Of a stretch of 64,000 nt of DNA, positions 16,294 through 62,380 are shown piece after piece (the first letter of the stretch is position 1; the number at the start of each line of letters is the position of its first letter). A model generated the notes under the pieces. The model was not told the origin of the DNA. It made no database searches and saw only the letters and a program-made list of their open reading frames with translations. This DNA comes from Raja brachyura (taxonomy: Eukaryota). The stretch covers positions 36,022,001-36,086,000 of the forward strand of contig OY740806.1 in assembly GCA_963514005.1 (NCBI GenBank), read 5' to 3'. The translations under genes were made by a program, and so were the position numbers.

Positions 16294-17342
16294 CTGTGAA
16301 AATAAAGGGCAAAACATTAGATATGGGAAGATGCAATTGAACTCTGCACTTGTTCATATTCAGTAACAGTGGTTGACTTCATAAAATGATTAACAATGAA
16401 TGCTTTACACAATATGATAATCACTTCAGACTGAATAGAGAATTCATCCTGTTCAGACACACACCCTACACTCACTCCCTTGGAAATACCAACACATTTC
16501 GCCACCTGTCTTAATATAAATAACTTGCCTGGATACATGTTCCTTGGGCAACACTTGGAAAATTCTACAACATCCTAGCCGACTGGCAGCAAGACCAATC
16601 TAAATATTATATAATAAATATGAATACACTTTATACTAAATAATCTAAATATAAACATTCTCTCCTCCATGACCCGGTGTGTCTGCAGTGTGTTGACTGC
16701 ATTAACTCATCAAGATTTCTTCAAAGGTAGACACAAAATGCTGGAGTAACTCAGTGGGACAGGCAGCATCTCTGGAGAGCAGGAATGGGTGACGGTTTGG
16801 AAGAAGGGTCTCTACCTGAAATGTCACACATTCCATTTTTTTCAGGCCTGGGATTTCTACAAGAGCTATGGGTACCATCTGAAAATTCCTCTCCAAATCA
16901 CATACCAGCCTAACTCGCAAATACATTGCTGAATAATTTGGTATAATCCTTAATAGTAAGCCTGAGCATAGCAGCAGTACCATCACAGAGACATCTATCT
17001 TGTACCTTGCAACCATGTCCTAACCCATGCCCCACTCACTCTGAGCTACCTGTTCATTAGTTCCTAATGTATCTACAGCTCGATTTTAACAGCTGTCATG
17101 CATACAAACATCCCCAAGGCTTTGTCATTTTATCTCTGTGACCTCCTCCAGCCTCCTGTAATCCTCCAAGAGTTCCCTACTTTTCCAATTCTTGCCTTTC
17201 ACACATCCTGAATTTCCTTCACCCAACTATGGTCTGTTGACATTCTCGTGAAAACCCAGGGATATTTTAGTAGATTAAAGGAAGATCATTCTTATCACAC
17301 ACGATTTTCCATCATGAGCATAGGACTGGGTGCCATTGTTAC

Positions 17343-18313: not shown

Positions 18314-19122
18314 CTGAAATGAATGACACAGGGAATTACACTCAAGAGGTCGGACAGGCTGACTACCCAGCCTTGAACGAAACAGGCAAATTAATTAAAG
18401 TTGCTACATCAAACATCATTAGAGTAGCGAATGAGTATTATTATTGAAAATTAATGGCATATTACACACCTGGTAGTTCAAGCACACCTTTAACATATCA
18501 GAACAAACCAGGAACTTTCACAAAACATAATTATTTAAACCTACACACCTCGCCAATAAAAGTGATATTAGGACATAGGTTCATGATTATAAATCTGAGT
18601 CAAAGATTTTCAAAGGGGAAAGCGAGAGAGATTTAAGGAGGGGATGGCAGAGTTGAGGGCAACATTGGGAGCTAAAAGCAAGACCTTCAATAACCGGCAG
18701 ATCAAAATCAGGGATGTACGAGATATCAGATCTGAAGACACACCACAACCTCCAACACTTTGAGCTTAAGGGAAAATCCAACCCCATACCTTTTATTTAG
18801 TTATGGAGAGGTTTTGTACCTACATTTCAGAGTTTCCATTGATTCATTAAAACTGATGCCATTGACATGCCCTGACTAGAGTTACTGGTCAGAAATCAAC
18901 ATTTTTTTTTTGCAATGATAACTTCAGCTTTTAGCATTTCCCAATGAAGAAACAACAACCTTGATCCACATAAAAAAAGGCAAGGTCTTGTGAAGGAATG
19001 TTATTTTAAGAAGTTGCCACACTCTTCAAACCCCTTTGCAAAATGAGCAACGTTTATTTTGTCTAACTACGGTGATGCTGGCAAATTACAGACAGGACAT
19101 AAGAGGATGGAAACACAAGATG

Positions 19123-19907
19123 CCCACTGCATTGCCCCACTGCATTGCCCCACTGCATCGCCCCACTGCCTCGCCCCACTGCATTGCACCACTGCATTGC
19201 CCCACTGCATCGCCCCACTGCATCGCACCACTGCATCGCCCCACTGCATCGCCCCACTGCATCGCCCCACTGCATCGCCCCACTGCATCGCCCCACTGCA
19301 TCGCCCCACTGCATTGCCCCACTGCATTGCCCCACTGCCTCGCCCCACTGCATTGCCCCACTGCATTGCCCCACTGCCTCACCCCACTGCATTGCCCCAC
19401 TGCATCACCCCACTGCATTGCCCCACTGCATCGCCCCACTGCCTTGCCCCACTGCCTCGCCCCACTGCATTGCCCCACTGCATTGCCCCACTGCATTGCC
19501 CCACTGCCTTGCTCCACTGCATTGCCCCAGTACCTTTCCCCACTGCCTCGCCCCACTGCATCGCCCCACTGCATTGCCCCACTGCCTTGCCCTACTGCAT
19601 TGCCCAGTACCTTTCCCCACTGCATTGCCCCAATGCCTCGCCCCACTGCCTCGCCCACTGCATTGCCCCACTGCATTGCCCCAGTACCTTTCCCCACTGC
19701 CTCGCCCCACTGCCTCGCCCCACTGCATTGCCCCACTGCATTGCCCCAGTACCTTTCCCCACTGCCTCGCCCCACTGCATTGCCCCACTGCATTGCCCCA
19801 GTACCTTTCCCCACTGCCTCGCCCCACTGCATTGCCCCACTGCATTACCCCACTGCATTGCCCCACTGCCTCGCCCCACTGCATTGCCCCACTGCATTGC
19901 CCCACTG
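19123..19907. repeat. 13-bp minisatellite (ACTGCATTGCCCC)n, ~60 units, in intron 10
   Basis: Tandem units with variants ACTGCATCGCCCC, ACTGCCTCGCCCC and AGTACCTTTCCCC. It explains the repetitive ORFs in all frames. Confidence 0.97.
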
Positions 19908-19917
19908 TTTTACTTAC

Positions 19918-20016
19918 GTGCCATTTCATCCACAAGACCGAATCCTGTGATCCAGCAACTTGATCCATCGGGGAATTGCTGGTTGGCGGTTGGCAAACAG
20001 GCAGGCATGATTTTAT
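19918..20016 (-). CDS. TMPRSS13: TMPRSS13-like exon 10
   Basis: Encodes KIMPACLPTANQQFPDGSSCWITGFGLVDEMA; tttttcag| and C|gtaagt; 99 nt. Confidence 0.95.
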
Positions 20017-20590
20017 CTGAAAAATAAATGATGCATGACGCTACAGTAAAGATAACATGATTTCACAAGCATGTACGTTACAGCAGATCATTACGGGATT
20101 TCCCTGGCCTCCACAATAGACACCACCAGTCCCGATGTGTTTGGTCTAGTCGTGGTCTGATTTCACACCACTGTGGCATTTGTGCAAGATGTCACATTTG
20201 AGGAAACCAGCATCTCCAACGCTTCGAGATTAAGGGAAAATCCCACCCCATGTATTTTGTTGTTCAATGCTCTGAAAGCTGGCACAAGGTTCTGTCCATA
20301 GCCCCGTAGGGATCGTGGTGTAGAGGGATTGGGGTCAACCTCCACAAGGTTAGAACTTACAAAGGTCCCATTCACCAGCCCCTACAACCTCTCCTGTGAG
20401 AATGAGAATTTGCTCAAAATTAAGAATAATTGCTGTAATAACAAAATTGATTTCGGACATTGACTGGGTATCTCAGAAATGAATGTTAGGGTGATGGTCA
20501 ATATACAAAGGTGTGATACTTTAGAGGATTTGTGAGAATGCAACAAATGTGTCATTGGCCGTGGCCCAAGTGGCATCACCAGGACATTAC

Positions 20591-29830: not shown

Positions 29831-30028
29831 ATGTATCGCAGATAAACACTGTCACTTCTCTTTGTTCCTTTCTTATCTCCTGACATGGGGATCAGCACAG
29901 CCTGACCCTCCCTGTCATCTCTTCCTTCTCTGCATCTTGCAACGCCTACCATCTTTCATAAATGTTCTTTTGTTTATGTTCTCATTCTCTAACTGTTTGC
30001 ATTGACTCATTCACCAAATAGTCTTGTT

Positions 30029-30270
30029 TATAGAGTTACACAAAAAGCTGGAGAAACTCAGCGGGTGCAGCAGCATCTAAGGAGCGAAGGAGATAGGCGA
30101 CGTTTCGGGTTGAGACCCTTCTTCAGACTGGGACTTAGCAGACTGAAGAAGGGTCTCGACCTGAAACGTCGCCTATCTCCTTCGCTCCTTAGATGCTGCT
30201 GCACCCGCTGAGTTTCTCCAGCTTTTTGTGTAACCCTCGATTCTCCAGCATCTGCAGTTCCTTCTTTAAC
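30029..30270. mobile_element. Fold-back Penelope-derived short element, in intron 1
   Basis: ~96-bp inverted arms (30035-30130 and 30139-30234), near-identical to the Penelope end at 60353-60485; 9-bp TSD agtcttgtt at 30020-30028 and 30271-30279. Confidence 0.9.
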
Positions 30271-33200
30271 AGTCTTGTTCACAGTTTGTCCCAAATGGAC
30301 ACCTGTGTTTTACCCGATCAGATGCTGTCCTGTCCACCACCCTCCCTGCTGTTTAATGGGCTTCTTTTGTCTCTGTTCTGCCAAATAATCTACAACCAAT
30401 ATGTTCCCCATTTCAAATCCACAGATGTGGACTGACCTGATGAGTATTTCAAATTGTTTTCTCAAAGTTTTCCAGCATCTGCAGTTTTATTTGTTTTTCA
30501 AGAGATAAATAGACCTGCTCCTTCAGTCAACATCAATATTTCTTGTTCCAAGGTTCATGTTTAATTGCTCAGTAGCAATAAAGCTTAAGTAGAAGATGTG
30601 ATGTGCTTTCAGATCATGGTGGGCTTTGTCAGTTTGTTAGTTCATGTATAAAGTTTCGAGAAACTGCTGCTGTAAGTAGCTACACCCAACTCTTGACATT
30701 TGAAACTGCCAAATGTTTCACAACTCAAAAGGTATTGCTGAACCTGTAACTGTCAACTACAGCTCACATTTGCACTTTCAATGCAGCTACACACAAACCA
30801 TCGGCTCACCTTGGAAAGGAGAGGGTATGCCTCCCATTTGGTATAATTAAAAGTGAGATATATCAGCAACATATACAAAGAGGTTGCTCTAAAGTCACCA
30901 AGTATCTAAGGATAGATCTCCAGACTAGAACAAACATCATGAAACTACAAAACAATGGCTGAGATCGATAAACAAGTAATGTTGAATTGAAAGTCTATAT
31001 TTATGTTGGTGAAAAATCTCCGTGCATTCCATCGGGCTCTACATTGATCAGTGAAGTGAACAGCAATCGTGAGGAATGTGGAGGCAATACAAATGGGAAG
31101 GATGTAATCCAACTTTTGGAATTTGCCCAATCATATTAGAGGTAACCCTCTAATTCTCCATTTAACAAATTCTGCTGCATTCTTTGTTTGTGTGCATCTT
31201 TACAGTACATGGGAGAGAACGGCAAGGAAGCCTCCAAAGTGCCAAAATGTCTCAAGGTGATTCATTAGTATTTTCAGCCAAAACATGGCACTGAAATTCA
31301 TGGAGAATTATTAGGACAGTTGACTAAATGCAGGGTTAAAGAAGTGTTTTAAAGCATTGTTCCAATATCTCTTTATGTGGTTTAATGTTCGATGTTTTGT
31401 TTAAAACTCAGACATTAAAGCACCTTACAAGGGTTTAATGCTGCTGGAGTATTACATAAGTACGTTGCTGTTTAACAATGAACTTAAGGAATGGACTTTG
31501 GAAGAGGCGAGGAAAGTTTTTAAACATTGATCCCTCCAGGACATTGGCAGGACCTTCGTAAAAAAGAACACAAAACTCCAAATGTTTTCAACCACAATTT
31601 AAACCAACTTTCCACTTTCTCATAATTTCTATTGTTCCCGAATCAACCATTTTATCAGTATCACATCTGCAATATTCAGCTTGCCTTACGATTTTGATTA
31701 TAGATGACTGTTTTAACTAAAGGAATGCCACATCCCAATGATCTATTTAACCTGAGCCAATCGATGTAACCACTGGGGATCCGTTGGATTACAAGAGAAG
31801 CTTAGTCTTTCAGGAGGAGCTGGCCTACCTGAAGGGGAATAGATGAGGTGAATTTGTGAGATTAACACCCTGTAATGACATGTCCACACTTATTTATGAG
31901 GGGAGAATTTAAAAAAATCACAGCAATATCAGTTATTGCTGTTTGGGGTAGTGGATTAAAATGATCACTTGTCGATCAGTTGCTACAAGGCAGTTGATCC
32001 TGGGCCTCTCAAAATGAGAGTGTGAAAGAGTAAGAACACATAACAAATAGAAGATTGCAGAGGCCATTCACTGAGATCATGGTTGCTCCTTCATGCATTA
32101 AATACTCTAGTGCATGGGACATACCCTGCCTTTGGAAGCAGATTATAACAAGCGTACCCTCCATAATGTGTATAGGAGACTTTCTACAATGACCTTTAAT
32201 GTTCACATTACGTATGAGGAAAGAACATTTCTTTAACACAAGATCAACCATTGGTGTTGGAGGCAGTGGAAGAAGCTGGCCGCTGTCAACCAGTTACTGC
32301 AAGGCAGCTGGTCCGTGGCCTCGCAGAATGATAGTGTTAGAACGAGAGCCAGAGGGGGCTATTCAATAAGATCATGGTTGATACTTCATTTGTCCGTTTC
32401 CCACTGCCCAAAAAACTATCAATCTCAACCCTCAACATATCCAGTGACTGAGAAGCATTGACATCAAGAACTGAAACAATGCAAAGAGTTACAATGCTCT
32501 GCTGAAATATGTCCAAAGACTGCACCCATTTTACAAGGGCAGGTCCCAAGATGACTCACATTCTGCCTCCAAACAGCCTCTCCACTGTCTGCAAAGCATG
32601 ATTCAGCTTGCATTGTCTAGGCAGGGACATGCACACGATAGAGTGGGAGTGTGTGCTGGGCGGTGTGTGGGGTCAGGGCTGCAAGCCCTGCAGTAATCAC
32701 AATTGTAGCATGAGTTCATGGGCACAGGCACAAACATACCCCCATAACGCTAACACACACACACACACCTCCTGAAAAACAACCCACCTTATTCATATTC
32801 TCACCAAGATGAACACATTTCCATCAAGATTCAATAAGCTCAACATTATCAAGGATAATCCAGCACACTCAAGCATCACCCAATATTCCACTGAACACAG
32901 GCACTTCTTGCCACTCGATTCTCCAATGGAAATTATGGCCAAGCGGAAATTGCTAGGTTTTGCCAGTGATGCCACGTCCCGCAACTCAATGCAACCTGTT
33001 CCTGTGCTTTGTACTCCGATCTTGTCCCGTGAATATTCTTTCCAGTACATACTCCATTACATGTAAAAATGCTATTGCATGATTCTCCCCTGATCATAGA
33101 TGTTTTCAGCGTTAAAACCTCAGCACACAAGCTGTCCATGCCCCAAGTTGTGCAAGGACTCCAGTGCACAGGTTTTAGACCAAACACATATATCCTGTTG

Positions 33201-34218: not shown

Positions 34219-35316
34219 GAAGGCTGTAGGATGAACTGAATGTCAGAGAAACTCCACAGACTGTGTGAGCATACCGACTGTTGTCATCGACTTTATTAAA
34301 TAAAACTTGACGAACCAGTTTGACGTGAAGAGCTTGCCCCTGTGTTTTACGTACATTACCACGCCCAGGTGCATGGAGTTTGATTTGTGCGTTGAATATT
34401 TAACAGCTGCCAATAGAAATGACTTACACTTGTACAGCAACGTAATGCAGTAAATTATCTAGACAAGAATTCACTGCAGCATAAACAGTCCAAATTTGAT
34501 ATTAAGATATATAAAGGAGATTAGAACACTTTTAGAGCTTTTAAGAAGCACCTTAACGGAGGAGAAGGAGAGAGATGTACAATTTTAGAAAATAAATTAC
34601 AGAACTTAGTGTCTAAGCAGCAAAAAATGCATCATCATCAATAATGAAGTGAAACAACACAGATAGATGTAAAGAGCAGAAGTGCAGACATGTGGAGGAC
34701 CAAATAAATCTTATGGCTGCATGAAGTTTTTTTTTCACAGTCCATTAGGATTGAGAATGTGCAGGAAGGAACTGCAGATGCTGATTTAAACCGAAGATAG
34801 ACACAAAAAAGTGGAGTAACACAGCAGGTCAGAGAGCATCTCTGGGAAAAGGAATAGATGACCTTTCCGGGGTGACACCCTTCTTTAGATGAACAAATGC
34901 AGTAAATGATCTCAATCTCTAGGATTGAGAATGTCTCTGGTTTTGTGGTGATGCACTCCTGCCATTTACGCAAAGCTTTGATACTCCTAACAAATGGACT
35001 GGAAGTTCTCAATCCATCCCAAACTCTCCTTCTCCAAACTGAGCAGCCTTGGGCCCGGAGATGCAGGAATCAGGGAAGGTGCACATTTCCAGAAGGCTTT
35101 GAATACATCCTTGAATTGTTTCATCATCCAGCCAGTAATCTTGGCCAAGACAGTGCTTGGAATAAGATCTGGTTTGGGGGAGTGTAGGGCACAAACTATG
35201 CCATTTGTCCATCATAATCGACTGACTGCGCTTAGGGCTTCAGTGGTTGGAATGTTGACTGGGGAAAGGATACTTTAGTTCCCTTCACTCACTTCAATTT
35301 TCAGACAACTCTCACA

Positions 35317-35844: not shown

Positions 35845-35970
35845 TGTTAAAGAAGGAACTGCAGATGCTGGAGAATCGAGGGTTACACAAAAAGCTGGAG
35901 AAACTCAGCGGGTGCAGCAGCATCTAAGGAGCGAAGGAGATACGCGACGTTTCGAGTCGAGACCCTTCTT
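35845..35970 (-). mobile_element. Penelope terminal-repeat fragment, same subfamily as the 60353 and 30035 copies
   Basis: Near-identical to 60353-60478. Confidence 0.85.
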
Positions 35971-36051
35971 CCCTTTTTTCCTTTCTCTTTCTATGGATAA
36001 GGCTGTACGCTTCTGTTTCAATTTCCTTTTAAGCCCATACCTGTTGTTTTC

Positions 36052-38009: not shown

Positions 38010-39260
38010 ATACGATAAAACTTTATTTATCCCAGGAGGGAAATTGGTCTGCCGTTATAAACCTCAACAAGATACATGAAACATGAAACTAAAGTGACGT
38101 GTGGAAAGTCCAGGATTGGGGATAGGCAAAGATTGGGGAGGGGAGGGTGGGGGGGAAGGTGAGTCAGTCTACCCCATGACAGAAGGGGGAGGAGTTGTAG
38201 AGTTTGATAGCCACAGGGAAGAAGGATCTCCTGTTGCGTTCTGTGCTGCATCTTGGTGGAACCAGTCTGTTGCTGAAGGTGGTCCTCAGGTTGACCAGTG
38301 GGTCATGGAAGAGGTGAGCTGTATTGTCCAGGATGCCCCACAGTTTGACGAGCATCCTCCCCTCCAAGACTACCTCCAGTGAATCCAACTCCACCCCCAG
38401 GATGGAGACAGCCTTCCTGATGAGCTTGTTGGTTCTGTTGGCATCCATGGCCTTCACTCTGCTGCCCCAGCACGAGACAATGTAGAAGATGGCACTGGTC
38501 ACCATCGATTGGTAGAACATCTGCAAAATCCTACTCCAGATGTTGATACAGTGGAGCCTTCTCCAAAAGTACAGACGGCTCTGTCTCTTCTTATAAAGTG
38601 CCTCAGCGTTCCTGGACCAGTCCAGTTTACTGTCCAGCTAAAGTCCAAGGTACTCCTTGGTAAACTGCACATCCACACCCATGATGGAGACAGGGGACAT
38701 GGGGCTTTCCTCTCCAGCACCAACTCCTTAGTCTTGTCAGCGTTGAGCTGCAGGTAATTCAGCCCACACCACTCAAAAAAGTCGTTGAGTACACCTCTGC
38801 TTTCAGCTTCCCTCCCCTCACTGATGCAGCCCACAATTGCAGATTCATCCAAAAACATCTGTAGGTGGCAGGATTCTGAGTTCTATCTGAAATCTGAGGT
38901 GTAGATGGTGAACAGGATGGGAGAGAGGACCATCCCCTGTGGGGCCCCCGTGTTGCTCACTACCGTGACCGAGACACAGTTCTGTAGCCTGGCATATTGT
39001 GGTCATCCAGTCAGGTAGTTGGTGATCCAGGACACCAGTGGAGCATCGATCCACATCTTCATCAGTTTGCACCCCAGCAGTGCAGGCCGGATGGTGTTAA
39101 AAACACTGGAGAAGTGAAAAAACATGACTCTCACAATGCTTCCCAGCTTATCCAGGTGAGCACAGGAACAATGGAGCAGGTGGATGATGGCATCCTCCAC
39201 CCCACCTTTGTTTGTTAAACAAACTGCAGGGGGTCCAGGTAGGGTCTAAACAGGGGTCAC
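38010..39260 (-). mobile_element. Rex/Babar-like LINE, 5'-truncated, degenerate RT
   Basis: EDAIIHLLH...FSSVFNTIRP; GAPQGMVLSPILFTIYTSDF; RRSFFPVAIKLYN. Confidence 0.88.
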
Positions 39261-53030: not shown

Positions 53031-56000
53031 TCCGCACCAAAATAAGAAAGGAATCAGCTCTGAAATGCAATTTCCACATGACAGCTAAACACCAGCAATG
53101 CACACTGTCGCTGACAAGTGGAATCAGAGTGGGGAAGGAAAAGTGGGTGCCACGAGGTTTAGTGAAGGAACATGAAGATATGACAAACAGGAGCAATCAG
53201 CATATCTGGCCTCCACCATTCAATAACGTCATGACAGGTCCAGTCTTGGCATCAACACCATTTTCTTCCTGTACCGGCTGATTCATTTGTAATTCAAATG
53301 TCTGTCAATTTATGCTTTAAAGATACTCAATGGCTTCACAATTCTCTGGGGTAAAGAACTCCACTGAGTCATAATCGTCTGGGAAAAGGAATCTTTCTTC
53401 GCCTCTGATGTAAATGGGCAATCTCCTGGTCTCCATCCAACGCTTCATTAATTATGGAGACTAAAACTGTACATGCTACTCCAGGTGAAGCCTTATCATC
53501 ATTCTATAAAGATGCACCAAGACTCTGCATCTGTTATATTCCATACCCTTCACAATAAAGACCACCATTCCATTTGCTTTCATATCTCTTAAGCTCCATG
53601 CGTCAGGAGCTCCACACTCCTTTATACCTACAACACCTGGCTAAGTCACTCTATTTAAATAATATGTATATATATTTTTTAATTTTCCTTTTAGATTTTG
53701 TAATCTCATACCTTTAATGTGTCCCCTTAACAAATGCGTCCTGGAAATGAACTGATTTTTCCGTAATCCATTCTGTTATTTCTTCAAGATCTGTGGGAAA
53801 TGTGTCAGGCACGGTTTCACTTTCATAAGACCATGTTGCCTCCACTGATGGGAATGATGTTCTGCTCCCACTGCCACCTACTGAACAACGGTGGTCAGCA
53901 TTGGTCCGATGAGAGGCGTTACGTTAACCGGCCTGTAATTTGTTGCTTCCTGCCTCCTTCCATTCTTGAATTTTGGCAATGCATTTGTGGTTTTATAATC
54001 CTGTGGGACCGCTTCAGAATGCAGGAATTTTAATAGATTACGACCAGTGCATCCATAATAATCTAATTTCCCTAGACTTCTATAGCCTTCATTGAACTTG
54101 GCAACTCGAGTACTCATCCAGATACTTCTTAAATATGGTGAAAGCAACTACCTTCACCACTTCCCAGGCATTGTGTTCCAGTCTCTAACCACTCACTGTG
54201 TGAAAACATTCTTCCAGAAATGTCATCTATTCCTTCGCTCCATAGATGCTGCCTCACCCGCTGAGTTTCTCCAGCATTTTTGTCTATCTTCGAACCATGA
54301 TCTTTGTTCATACGATGTCGGAACAGAATTCGGTCATTCAGCTCATCTACTCTACCATTCAATCATAACTGATCTATCTTTCCCTCTCTACCCCATTCTC
54401 CGGCCTTCTCCCTATAACTCCTGACACCGGTACACATAATGTCCTCTAGTATTAGACCCCTCTGCCTAGGGGAAATGTTTCTTACCATGTGCCTGCTCTA
54501 TACTTCTCACACCTCTATCAGGCAGCCCGCAGCCTCCTCTGCTCCAGTGGAAACAAATAGAATCTACCCTGTCTCTCCTCCAAGCAACAGGCTGGTGAAT
54601 CTCTCTGAATCTTCTCCAGTGCAGCCATGTCCCTCATCAATTCTCCAGCTGTGGTCTAACCAATGTTTCTTAAAGTTAAACCAAACCCCCCCTTGTTCTT
54701 ACACATTATGCCATGACTAAAACAAACAAACCTTCTTCAGCACCCAGTCTACCTGTGCTGCCACCTTCAGGTATCTTTTCACCTGTACAAGGTCCTTTTG
54801 TTCCTCAATGCTCCCAAGGGCCCGATGTCCTACCCGTATTAGACCTCCCTAAATGTATCACCTTACAATTATCAGAATTAAATTCCATCTCCCATTACTC
54901 TGCCGAGTTTACAGAACCAATCAACATTGTTCTATACCTACCTAACTATCACCAGTAGCAGCAATTTTCATGTCAGAAATCCACTGCAGAAACTTGGAAA
55001 AGTTCCCTCTGGTGGGGAAATCAATGTGATCTTGACTTCCATGGAGAGAGCAGTGCCTAGCTATGTTCTGACAGCCATGGTAAAGCCAAGACAGTGAATA
55101 CATTTGTAGGAAGGAACTCCAGATGCTGGTTTACACCAAAGATATACACAAAAGGCTGGAGTGTGGAGAAGTGTGGGAGATCTCAGAGTGGGAGAAGCCT
55201 GAAGAAATCTCGACTTCGAAACGTCACCTATTCCTTTCCTCCATAGATGCTGCCTGACCCGCTGAGTTAATCTATCTTTTTGTGTCTATGTTCTGCGAAT
55301 ACATAGTTTAACAGAGAGGCTGAGGTAAGAATTGGTGTCGCTGATGGCCCTTTGGCAGGAGAATGTCGATGTTTCTGCCTCCAGCCTAACCCACTCTCAG
55401 TGACAACCATGGCCAGGATGATGTTGAATGTCGCCAGAGCAAGCAACACTGAGACATGCATGAAATCTCTGTAGCTAAATGGTGGAGAAAGCACTTACGG
55501 CTTGAGCAGACTTGGCAGATTTTGGAAGATGCTTGAGCCACATGCTATCAATCTTGGAAGTGATTAGTCAAGGGTCTAGTGCAAAGAGGAAAGTGTAAAG
55601 GAGTTGGGTGGGCAAGTTTTTTACACAGGGGGTGGTGAGAGCCTGGAACATGCTGCCAAGGGTGATGGTTGAAGCAGATATGTTAGTGGCATTTAAAACT
55701 CTTTTGGATAGGCATATGATATGCAGGAAATGGAGGGATATGGGTTATGTGTAGGGAGGTAAGTGATGATCTTGGCATCATGTTGAGCCCAGGCATTGTG
55801 GGTCGATGGGCCTGTTCTTGTGTTGTACTGTTCTATGTCTCCTAATGTCAGCAGAGTCCCTTTAAGTAGCAAAAAAGTAGCAAATTAGCACAGATCACCA
55901 ATGAGGTGTGACTCTAAACCAAGGCCCTATATACGCCTGGAAGATAGATAGTAAATATTTTTGGTGCTGATTTGAGGCTGAACTGGAGTGTTCTGATGGT

Positions 56001-59858: not shown

Positions 59859-60451
59859 GTTCCCTGGGATTAAGGGGTACTGTTGTTTGTTTATATTTTT
59901 AAATAAACCTTATTACTGCATTAAATGCAATGTTAATACTAATGCATTAATTGCTCATTCGAGTCAATCAATGCAGTGAGATGCCGAGATTTGTAATCTA
60001 CGACATGAAATCACAAAGCTTTGAACTCTTCACAGAATCACTCACGTGACTCCGAAGTAAAATAGTAAGATTAAACGAGAACTTACCAGTTTGAAATTTG
60101 ATCTTGATTTTATGAGGAGTTACGTTGGTGATTACGTGCCCGCCACGCTCAACCCTCTCTCATAAAGGATCATATGGTAGTTCTCGAGTCAGTCATCTTA
60201 CTATGTCACTTCGGTGTTGTTATTTGTGATTCCATACCACTGCTTTGAAGATTGGTGCGCATGCGGCCTGGCGGGTCTTCTTCACGTAATCACCAACATA
60301 ACTTCTCATAAAATCAAGATCAAACTTCAAACTGGTAAGTTCTCATTTAAGTTGTTAAAGAAGGAACTGCAGATGCTGGAGAATCGAGGGTTACACAAAA
60401 GGCTGGAGAAACTCAGCGGGTGTAGCAGCATCTAAGGAGCGAAGGAGATAG

Positions 60452-60486
60452 GCGACGTTTCGGGTCGAGACCCTTCTTCAGACTGG
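60452..60486 (-). ncRNA. Minimal type I hammerhead ribozyme motif in the Penelope 3' terminal repeat
   Basis: Minus strand reads ccagt CTGAAGA a GGGT ctcg ACCC GAAA cg TC gcc: conserved core, 4-bp helix II, palindromic ACGT in place of helix III. Minimal hammerheads are known from Penelope-like elements. Helix I is weak here. Confidence 0.7.
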
Positions 60487-60713
60487 TCAGGGATCAGGGA
60501 AACGAGAGATATAAACAGTGATGTGGAGAGATAAGGAACAATGAGTGAAAGATATGCAAAAAAGTATTGGTGATAAAGGAAGCAGGCCATTGTAAGCTGT
60601 TTGTGGTGTGAAAATGAGAAGCTAGTGCAACTGGGGGGGGGGGGGGGGGGGAGATGGAGAAGGAATGTCAGGGCCAGAGGGCTGAGGGAGAGGTGGGGGG
60701 GAGGCAGTCTGGG

Positions 60714-61655
60714 TTAACAGAATTGAGAAAATTCAATGTTTAAGCCCAGAGGATGCAGACTCCCCAAGCGGAATATGAGGTGCTGTTCCTCCAACTTGCG
60801 GTGTTGATCACTCTGGCCGTGGAGGAGGCCCAGGACCGAGAGGTCGGATACGCAGTGGGAGGGGGAGTTGAAGTGCTGAGCCACCGGGAGGTCCGGTTGG
60901 TTATTGCGGACCGAGCGGAGGTGTTCGGCGAAACGATCGCCCAGCCTCCGCTTGGTCTCACCGATGTAGATCAGCTGGCATCTGGAGCAACGGATGCAGT
61001 AGATGAGGTTGGAGGAGGTGCAGGTGAACCTCTGTCGGACTTGGAATGACTGCTTGGGTCCCTGAAAGGAGTGGATGGGGGAGGTGAAGGGACAAGTGTA
61101 GCATCTCTTGCAAGGGAAAGTGCCCGGGGAAGGGGTGGAGCGGGAGGGAAGGGAAGAATTGACGAGGGAGTTGCGGAGGGAGCGGTCTTTGCGGAAGGCA
61201 GACAGGGGGGGAGATGGGAAGATGTGGCGAGTGGAGGGGTCACGTTGGAGGTGACGAAACTGGCGGAGGACTATCTGTTGTATGCGCTGGCTGGTGGGGT
61301 GAAAGGTGAGGACCAGGGGGACTCTGCCCTTGTTGTGAGTGGGGGAATGGGGAGAGAGGGCAGTGTTGCGGGGTATGGAGGAGACCCTGGTGCGAGCCTC
61401 ATCTATAGTGGGGGAGGGGAAACCCCGTTCTCTGAAGAACGAGGACATTTGCGATGACCTGGTGTGGAACACGTCATCCTGGGAGCAGATGCGGCGTAGA
61501 CGGAGGAATTGGGAATAGGGGATGGAGTCCTTACAGGAAGCAGGGTGGGAGGAAGAGTAGTCCAGGTAGCTGTGGGAGTCAGTTGGTTTGTAGTGGATGT
61601 CAGTCAGGAGTGTGTCACCTGCAATAGAGATGGTGAGGTCAAGGAATGGTAGGGA
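60714..61655 (-). CDS. Penelope-like RT thumb + GIY-YIG endonuclease (partial, open frame)
   Basis: LPFLDLTI...DIHYKPTDSHSYLDYSSSHP...IPYSQFLRLRRICS; NLIYCIRCSRCQLIYIGETKRRLGDRFAEH. Confidence 0.88.
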   Translation of the reverse strand, partial: SLPFLDLTISIAGDTLLTDIHYKPTDSHSYLDYSSSHPASCKDSIPYSQFLRLRRICSQDDVFHTRSSQMSSFFRERGFPSPTIDEARTRVSSIPRNTALSPHSPTHNKGRVPLVLTFHPTSQRIQQIVLRQFRHLQRDPSTRHIFPSPPLSAFRKDRSLRNSLVNSSLPSRSTPSPGTFPCKRCYTCPFTSPIHSFQGPKQSFQVRQRFTCTSSNLIYCIRCSRCQLIYIGETKRRLGDRFAEHLRSVRNNQPDLPVAQHFNSPSHCVSDLSVLGLLHGQSDQHRKLEEQHLIFRLGSLHPLGLNIEFSQFC

Positions 61656-62380
61656 ACCTCATTTAATCTTACTATTCTGTGCAAGAAAAACCTGCCATCA
61701 AATTGAGCTACTAATGACATCACTGGAAGTCTCCAGTATTCCATTACAAAGTCCTCAACCATTTCAGATAATCATCACCACATCCATGCCATCAGAGAGC
61801 TTTAAACGTAAGCAATTACAATTCTTCTGGACTGACCTTTAGTTCTTATGTACATCCATTGGCACTAATGTTTGCTTTAGACCGTCATCGCTTTCATCAT
61901 TTCTAATAACTCAATCACGCATTTTCCTTTAGTTTCTTCCTCCTCGCCGTCATTTTTCTTGTGAATATTTAGACAAAAGATCAGAGTTTAAATATTAAGA
62001 CTGATGCTCTACACAGATGCTTTCTTATTTTTTCTCTTTCTTTCATTTGTTTCCCCAGTACCCAGACCATTTCTCTTGTTATAATAATTATCATTCATTT
62101 CCACCAGCGGGTGGCACACTTCACCAGAAGGAGAAGTTCTAGTTACTCGACCCAAAAACCACCCATTCCTCCGCTCCAGAGATGCTGCCTGTCCCGCTGA
62201 GTTACTCCAGCATTTAGTGCCTATCTGTAGTTACTCTGCCTGTCACAGCTGGAACATGCGATCATCAACCCTCTGTACTTCCTGTGTTGGTGGCTTATGT
62301 TTGCCTGCTTGCTGGAATTGAAGGAATGCAATTCCTTCTCTCCAAAGATGCTGCCTGTCCCACTGAGTTACTGCAGCTTT

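Follow-up and report, generated by a model that had tools for sequence, protein, structure and literature searches.

A fold-back insertion in a TMPRSS-type gene of Raja brachyura as a probable by-product of a Neptune-type Penelope-like element

This report concerns a fold-back element of 242 nt at positions 30029-30270 of a 64,000-nt stretch of Raja brachyura DNA (assembly GCA_963514005.1, contig OY740806.1, forward-strand positions 36,022,001 to 36,086,000; hereafter the window, numbered from its first letter). The element is built from the pseudo-long terminal repeat (pLTR) of a Penelope-like element (PLE) and lies within a minus-strand gene whose recognizable coding exons run from 34197-34126 down to 17343 and whose nearest named relatives are TMPRSS-type proteases of skate, rays, and shark. 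The insertion falls between the first (34197-34126) and second (26919-26656) recognizable coding exons, that is, in intron 1, as the original prediction from the letters alone had stated; "first" is counted by recognizable coding exons, and further untranslated exons may lie upstream. The locus, with its target site duplication (TSD), is composed as follows.

30020 to 30028, forward strand: left TSD, 9 bp, AGTCTTGTT
30029 to 30031: filler of 3 nt between the TSD and the left arm
30032 to 30131, reverse strand: inverted pLTR arm without tail, Penelope sense -5 to +94 relative to hammerhead C3
30132 to 30138: head-to-head junction spacer, 7 nt
30139 to 30270, forward strand: direct, tailed pLTR arm that spans -4 to about +127 relative to C3
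30238 to 30270, forward strand: one-sided PLE tail, 33 nt, right arm only
30271 to 30279, forward strand: right TSD, AGTCTTGTT

The inverted arms (30032-30130 and 30139-30237) are 96% complementary over 99 nt, with 4 differences, and the 5' ends of both face the center. Each matches the Penelope end at 60353-60486 with 96-97% identity. In a strict search, 5 of 1,000 random boundary pairs scored as well as the AGTCTTGTT duplication, and none of the longer words (8 to 10 nt) across the spacer occurs a second time in the window. Arms of about 96 bp, a 9-bp TSD, and near identity to the Penelope end at 60353-60485 had all been proposed beforehand and are borne out by these values. The expectation that the pre-mRNA forms a hairpin of about 100 bp is likewise sound as a prediction, with a computed RNA fold of -197.6 kcal/mol (z, -24) equalled by 0 of 200 shuffles. 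An amendment is needed, in that the element is asymmetric, with a tail on the right arm and none on the left.

Two longer copies in the window bear on the parent of these arms. In both, a TATA stands 29 nt upstream of the A of CCAGTCT.

60351 to 61657, reverse strand: 5'-truncated Neptune-type PLE copy of the same subfamily as the 30029-30270 arms, with the 3' part of an open reading frame (ORF) containing a CX2CxxC linker and GIY-YIG, a 3' untranslated region, the hammerhead, and the tail
60342 to 60350 and 61658 to 61666: 9-bp TSD of this copy
60480 to 60513, reverse strand: TATA (60513-60510), followed 29 nt downstream by the A (60484) of an initiator-like CCAGTCT abutting the hammerhead core; putative parent transcription start and 5' wall of the short copies
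10895 to 11186, forward strand: second long copy, of an older subfamily, with TATA at -29 (11076-11079); left end approximate

The 60351-61657 copy is without most of the reverse transcriptase (RT) core, and the GIY-YIG match of its frame (E, 3.6e-4) falls just under Pfam's cut-off. Most of the 120 relatives listed for this frame (E ≤ 1e-20) contain RT domains. The CX2CxxC linker, which the window frame shares with 112 of the 120, falls within the CX2-5CxxC pattern that precedes GIY-YIG in Neptune; such a linker is described for Neptune and also for Nematis (PMC8557442). Judged by these motifs, the parent of the short element is a Neptune-type PLE. The long copy itself is inserted in the terminal repeat of a degraded DIRS-type element (56.5-60.35 kb, resuming at 61658-61690) that has RT and tyrosine recombinase matches and 68-nt inverted repeats at 60071-60138 and 60283-60350.

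Published PLE insertions offer close precedent. In Adineta, a PLE unit has an inverted, tail-less pLTR set head to head with a direct one; its tail of 31 bp is one-sided, and its TSD measures 9 bp (PMC3846280). The canonical scheme for endonuclease-positive (EN+) PLEs likewise has an inverted 5' pLTR, a one-sided tail of 30 to 40 bp, and a TSD (PMC8557442). The 30029-30270 element shares the head-to-head inverted copy without tail, the direct copy with its 33-nt tail, the 9-bp TSD, and a hammerhead within the pLTR, and its sequence comes from the pLTR of an element with a GIY-YIG frame. The short copies of the window differ from these complex insertions in holding 95 to 130 nt of pLTR only and in having sharply placed 5' ends. 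The element is thus the published PLE insertion pattern reduced to the pLTR end alone, and its kind is already known. From this anatomy, we consider it very likely that 30029-30270 was inserted, dead on arrival, by the RT/GIY-YIG protein of a PLE of the Neptune type. Inverted arms and TSDs would also be left by a miniature inverted-repeat transposable element (MITE) moved by a DNA transposase, an origin to which we give next to no credence. Against it stand TSD lengths that vary from 8 to 16 bp, ends made asymmetric by a single tail, and arms that are the 3' end of a GIY-YIG retroelement; the locus has neither symmetric terminal inverted repeats nor a TSD of fixed length.

Related copies are dense in the window. 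Its 62,912 called bases contain 23 loci with 34 arms, comprising 11 fold-backs and 12 single copies (2 of them long). Short copies, or stubs, make up 21 of the 23 loci; counted over all 23, the density is one per 2.7 kb. Apart from the 30029-30270 element and the two long copies, the loci are as follows.

640 to 858: fold-back, subfamily A
1694 to 1893: fold-back, subfamily A
2570 to 2766: fold-back, subfamily B
3968 to 4121, 4677 to 5003, 11694 to 11891, and 16726 to 16845: fold-backs, subfamily B
7396 to 7496 and 55108 to 55290: fold-backs of no clear subfamily
42468 to 42692: fold-back, subfamily C; its junction is a perfect CAG-A-CTG overlap and its TSD has 16 bp (2 mismatches)
35845 to 35971, reverse strand: single tailed arm of the same subfamily as the 30029-30270 arms, with an 11-bp TSD
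8249, 10235, 12511, 26981, 34765, 36639, 54214, 62146, and 62333: other single arms

All of the fold-backs announced beforehand (at about 640, 1695, 2570, 3966, 7392, 11692, and 42465) were found as such, together with a further one at 16731. Of the single arms announced, those at 10235, 12510, 26980, and 35845 stand, while those at 4874 and 55198 proved to be halves of disrupted fold-backs (4677/4874 and 55110/55196). Alignment inspected by eye separates four sequence subfamilies in the window; fold-backs occur in each, and both arms belong to one subfamily in 9/9 fold-backs that can be judged. TSDs of 8 to 16 bp exceeded a random control (≤0.033) at 12 of the 20 loci tested.

The original prediction allowed either an independent, ribozyme-bearing family or recurrent truncation with inversion, and it named shared versus unique fold-back junctions as the test. 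The centers all differ (11/11 fold-backs). Because old hairpin centers may erode after insertion, this uniqueness is weaker evidence than the tree. In the tree, which covers 21 of 33 arms (at least 80 nt; 12 too short were dropped, and 8249 was not aligned), the 30029-30270 arms group with single arm 35845 and the long copy at 60353, away from other fold-backs. A single fold-back clade is rejected (p-AU, 8.65e-30), with arms interleaved among single and long copies.

A hammerhead-like core is present in each arm of the element, on opposite strands.

30099 to 30126 (read 30126-30099), reverse strand: minimal type I hammerhead core, left arm; G>A in loop 2 (30111), helix I of 2 bp
30143 to 30170, forward strand: minimal hammerhead core, right arm; C11.1>U (30162), with the first pair of helix I lost through U>A at 30142

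Each arm reads CUGAAGA, an unpaired A, a 4-bp helix II, GAAA, a palindromic CG, and UC, so that by motif inspection the invariant core bases, the bulged base, helix II, and the palindromic helix III of the minimal type I hammerhead are complete in both. Helix I falls short of 4 to 5 bp, with 2 bp in the left arm and the parent and a broken first pair in the right arm. Minimal metazoan PLE hammerheads are defined by the core bases, an unpaired base between 9 and 10.1, G10.1-C11.1, and a palindromic 15.2-16.2; in Schistosoma, dual minimal hammerheads lie on opposite strands 100 to 700 bp apart, and in D. virilis helix I has 2 bp and an intron ends at helix I (PMC4209133). Judged by sequence, the arms share all of these core features and the opposite-strand pairing with the minimal type; they differ from it in a helix I of just 2 bp, as in D. 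virilis, and a helix II of 4 bp. The anticipated presence of cores on both strands therefore stands, but not the anticipated single substitution per arm near helix II, as the right arm has two changes and the left change is in loop 2. A search of the whole window against Rfam (E ≤ 1) returned 5 matches, none to a hammerhead family and none above its own gathering score; the MIR1507 match at 42530 reflects hairpin shape. Since Rfam gave no hammerhead match, the call is one of comparing the motif by inspection with the minimal descriptor in print.

Because the hammerheads occupy opposite strands, a single RNA carries one of the two. In the modeled hairpin RNA, the core is fully paired on either strand (unpaired probability, ≤0.005) and so predicted to be unable to fold. 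Nor is there the excess conservation of core nucleotides that ribozyme function would call for. Compared with the subfamily majority, 20/245 non-CpG core sites differ in the window arms versus 98/1637 downstream bases (p = 0.20), and the core is intact in 10 of the 19 window arms spanning it. The motif appears from these comparisons to be kept in source elements across subfamilies and not maintained in inserted copies.

These results bear on a retrozyme-like interpretation, in which the fold-back would be a self-propagating, non-coding family carrying a ribozyme. The same CAGACTG-type core occurs in three centers (7392, 30020, and 42465), and one opposite-strand joint in public contigs of run X4 (see below) has a summed depth of 6681 over 10 contigs, both of which could speak for such a family. 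The three centers with this core have arms of different subfamilies, as recurrent microhomology predicts; two cDNA ends annealing at CAG-N-CTG would be expected to overlap in just this core. Non-LTR retrozymes form head-to-tail arrays of 150- to 450-nt units that yield circular RNA (PMC7229834; bioRxiv 10.64898/2026.07.22.740005). The element resembles them in being short, non-coding, and pLTR related, with a type I hammerhead and TSDs of more than 4 bp, but it is head to head, with one sense motif per strand, and the window has no head-to-tail tandem units and no lineage apart from the autonomous element in the tree. Together with the differing centers, the rejected fold-back clade, the fully paired core, and its neutral decay, this makes a self-propagating family very improbable. 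The by-product reading is supported, and an independent retrozyme-like family is not.

The arms of the window tend to begin at one place. By manual calls relative to hammerhead C3, 21 of 34 arm 5' starts lie at -5 to +6 and 29 at -5 to +28; of the rest, 3 are further downstream and only 2 further upstream. A matching boundary appears in public contigs of four runs (X1, X4, X9, and X15) aligned to 60330-60630 at 85% likeness. Summed contig depth, which is not copy number and is inflated in the core bins by other subfamilies, falls 3.5-, 4.0-, 3.5-, and 2.1-fold across 60484 in the four runs, respectively, and the tail bins hold about half the depth of the arm bins or less. Loose contig ends pile up at 60483 (468, 431, 505, and 72 contigs) and at 60484 (406 in X4 and 407 in X9), and since their agreement is 0.31 to 0.34, they represent unrelated flanks. 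The first loose letter is C (in the sense direction, an extra G before the arm) in all six rows listed, with the rest of the consensus mostly A/T in five; joints from 60482-60484 begin with C in 7/8 of those listed.

CCAGTCT fits the initiator consensus, the TATA stands at the spacing usual for such a box, and a cap is a known origin of an extra G. We infer that the parent RNA starts at the wall (the initiator region, 60483-60486) and that the cap supplies the extra base. As the 5' ends pile up at one place, they would mark the end of an RNA template and not random truncation. The recurrent by-product envisaged by the original prediction is thus upheld, but "extreme truncation" is probably the wrong word for it. 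The hammerhead cut site lies 30 nt downstream of the wall, so the templates would have been uncleaved.

Other causes of the wall were considered. Hammerhead cleavage was rejected because its cut site (+27) is some 30 nt beyond the wall on the downstream side. A possible 3' splice site at CAG/TCTGA, suggested by a pyrimidine-rich upstream stretch and the D. virilis intron parallel, was set aside provisionally, as the arms keep the CAG and have no common exon-like upstream sequence. A sigma-70 promoter scan is not applicable to this organism. The ACGT palindrome of hammerhead helix III (60454-60459, reverse strand) lies at about +27 to +30 from the proposed start. By analogy with the downstream promoter element of Drosophila retroelements, RGACGTGY (PMC2377424), which has the same place, the palindrome may have a double use. 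Separately, contig joints from 60483-60484 to 60447-60451 with C or CT between occur in X1, X4, and X9 at low depth (122 to 217); they are apparently head-to-tail duplications of a 35- to 39-nt hammerhead module and could form cis dimers.

We propose that stubs arise from run-off cDNAs primed at the cut target. The parent RNA would start at the initiator just 5' of the hammerhead. The PLE protein would cut both target strands with a 9-nt stagger, and the two DNA ends would prime RT at two internal start sites of the 5'-proximal pLTR, one tail length apart and about 95 and 130 nt from the RNA 5' end. The cDNAs would run 95 to 130 nt to the capped end, often gaining a C, and their 3' ends would be joined head to head via microhomology or filler. 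One primed end would give a single arm, with or without tail; two would give a tailed and a tail-less cDNA, i.e., a fold-back. Without displacement, the two-primer product would be a tail only plus an inverted arm. As to this mechanism in itself (run-off from the capped RNA end, two target-strand primers, head-to-head joining), we judge the case for and against to be evenly balanced; the identity of the element and its explanation by two-primer run-off, taken as a whole, we regard as likely.

Of the 9 fold-backs that could be assessed, 8 have one tailed and one tail-less arm (p = 0.02 versus independent choice), which suggests that the two priming events are coupled. Coupled priming on one RNA would require strand displacement; to our knowledge, the PLE RT has no RNase H. 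Arm-to-arm identity is no higher than identity to other copies (the partner ranked first in 1/11) and so does not tell one template from two. We infer one RNA for both arms, strand displacement, and the joining pathway. In L1 twin priming, both target ends prime and an inversion arises without duplication, and in LTR elements strong-stop DNA is a cDNA that runs off the RNA 5' end. Priming from both ends and a run-off cDNA are common to these systems and the proposed one, but the 30029-30270 arms duplicate the same stretch, so that displacement or two RNAs would be needed, unlike in L1 twin priming.

An in vitro parallel is the Poseidon element PAc of anole. There, each target strand is cut and then extended, RT has two internal start sites a tail length apart, the product shortens with the template 5' end, and uncleaved RNA is the main substrate (PMC11167929). 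The analogy would lie in the two start sites one tail apart, in the use of both strands, and in copies that hold the hammerhead 5' of the cut site, as expected from uncleaved RNA. The window parent is Neptune-type, not Poseidon, and the accessible text of PMC11167929 does not trace inverted copies or short stubs back to this pair of start sites.

A competing account, which differs over mechanism and not identity, takes the stub as the same dead PLE by-product but has one cDNA (or antisense template) prime itself by folding back. Resolution of the hairpin by the endonuclease would then leave a one-sided tail, and the short length would come from RT stalling or dropping off near the hammerhead and not from an RNA end. 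Self-priming has been proposed for head-to-head PLE palindromes (PMC3846280), as has endonuclease resolution for the tail (PMC8557442), although the tail has since been tied to two RT start sites (PMC11167929). CAG-N-CTG at the wall is self-complementary; the 42465 fold-back has exactly that overlap, and the center of the 11692 fold-back has GGTCA microhomology. Conversely, the spacer of the 30029-30270 element is non-templated. Among the 8 tailed fold-backs, 5 have a tailed arm that extends 5' as far as its partner or further, in keeping with self-priming, but in the other three (2570, 30020, and 55110) it is the tail-less arm that extends further 5', which is unexpected from simple snap-back copying. 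An RT stall would leave the constant extra base and the TATA at -29 without reason, and the hammerhead region of the sense arm folds no better than shuffles. On balance, we consider self-priming possible but rather unlikely.

It could also be asked whether the single arm of about 130 nt is itself a non-autonomous family like a short interspersed nuclear element (SINE), transcribed and re-copied, with fold-backs as its insertion products. The very high copy number (73,125 to 91,407 contigs aligned in three runs), the sharp 5' end, and the initiator-like motif kept in the arms would suit it. Drosophila Penelope has an internal promoter (PMC2377424), and pLTR sequence alone can support insertion in trans (PMC3846280). 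Stubs are nevertheless without the upstream TATA, and the window contains long counterparts of the subfamily B and D arms. At the two positions that set the three D arms apart from the 60353 copy, their letter is the majority one among X1 contigs, and these positions are therefore not stub specific. The anole protein, moreover, needed RNA up to +172 of the ORF (PMC11167929), possibly beyond what a stub contains. A family of this kind seems improbable to us.

Several observations weigh against the run-off explanation with two primers. Where transcription starts cannot be read from contigs, and X15 probably represents DNA. Other subfamilies, which share the core but differ upstream, inflate the depth drop, and a larger pile of ends at 60485 is in part a subfamily with different upstream sequence. 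A clear extra G is found in the window only at 640L and 26981, and a variant in the template could account for the extra base; most arms at the wall begin at C(-4) or C(-5), 1 to 2 bases upstream of the proposed +1 A. TSDs do not exceed chance at 8 of 20 loci, and erosion of centers after insertion can make junctions seem unique and arms uneven. None of the N-termini of the 120 related proteins listed matches the arm as an ORF start, so the placement of the ORF after the tail is hypothetical. The opposite-strand joint (60391/60484; X4, 10 contigs, depth 6681; X9, 1 contig) fits a two-primer product without displacement, or else is an amplified junction in that organism or an artifact; neither X1 nor X15 contains it, and the joint data do not state its orientation. 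Because the joints listed (15 of 121 and 12 of 621) omit even the known 30029-30270 junction, the missing dominant head-to-head joint is no evidence.

Further features of the window were recorded. The 4677-5003 fold-back has a center of about 140 nt that is unrelated and resembles a LINE fragment, with a likely 15-bp TSD with mismatches (by eye). Filler of about 25 to 30 nt joins the 5' end of a single arm to the TSD at 12484-12510 and 34890-34919. A MITE-like element at 39202-40185 has arms of at least 221 nt that are 96% complementary, and its inverted match runs into the flanks. Other inverted-repeat elements unrelated to the pLTR lie at 41153-41393, 41974-42472, 44582-45018, and 48495-49089, with the 42465 fold-back adjoining the right end of the 41974-42472 element. 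A tandem repeat at 18994-20040, in an intron of the protease gene, has several frames open for 200 to 330 codons. Exact-pattern scans of viral contigs and of metagenome contigs both gave 0 matches.

The 30029-30270 element itself is debris of a known kind, and its value is as data: with stubs this dense, the start and stop points behind the inverted pLTRs and tails of PLEs can be sampled from nature in very large numbers. In its general form, the proposal is that PLE RT starts mostly in the 5'-proximal pLTR of its own mRNA, at both target ends and from two start sites, and runs off the cap to give strong-stop-like cDNAs of 95 to 130 nt that are inserted directly, with stubs as their genome-wide fossil record; we put this forward tentatively, at a little short of an even chance. 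The reading of PLE stubs as two-primer run-off products was not found in the literature searched (mostly non-subscription texts); figure S2 of PMC11167929, on genomic ends, may bear on it. If true, the proposal would bring under one mechanism the inverted pLTR, the tail on one side only, and the vast surplus of hammerhead motifs that stand alone in the genomes of animals, and long copies would require a jump between templates or a circle made by the ribozyme. Should the 5' wall be the capped RNA end, the start sites of PLEs would be readable from DNA alone, and the two-primer model would be testable by counting. Finally, the many intronic hairpins of about 100 bp are predicted to be a potentially large source of double-stranded RNA in these fishes.

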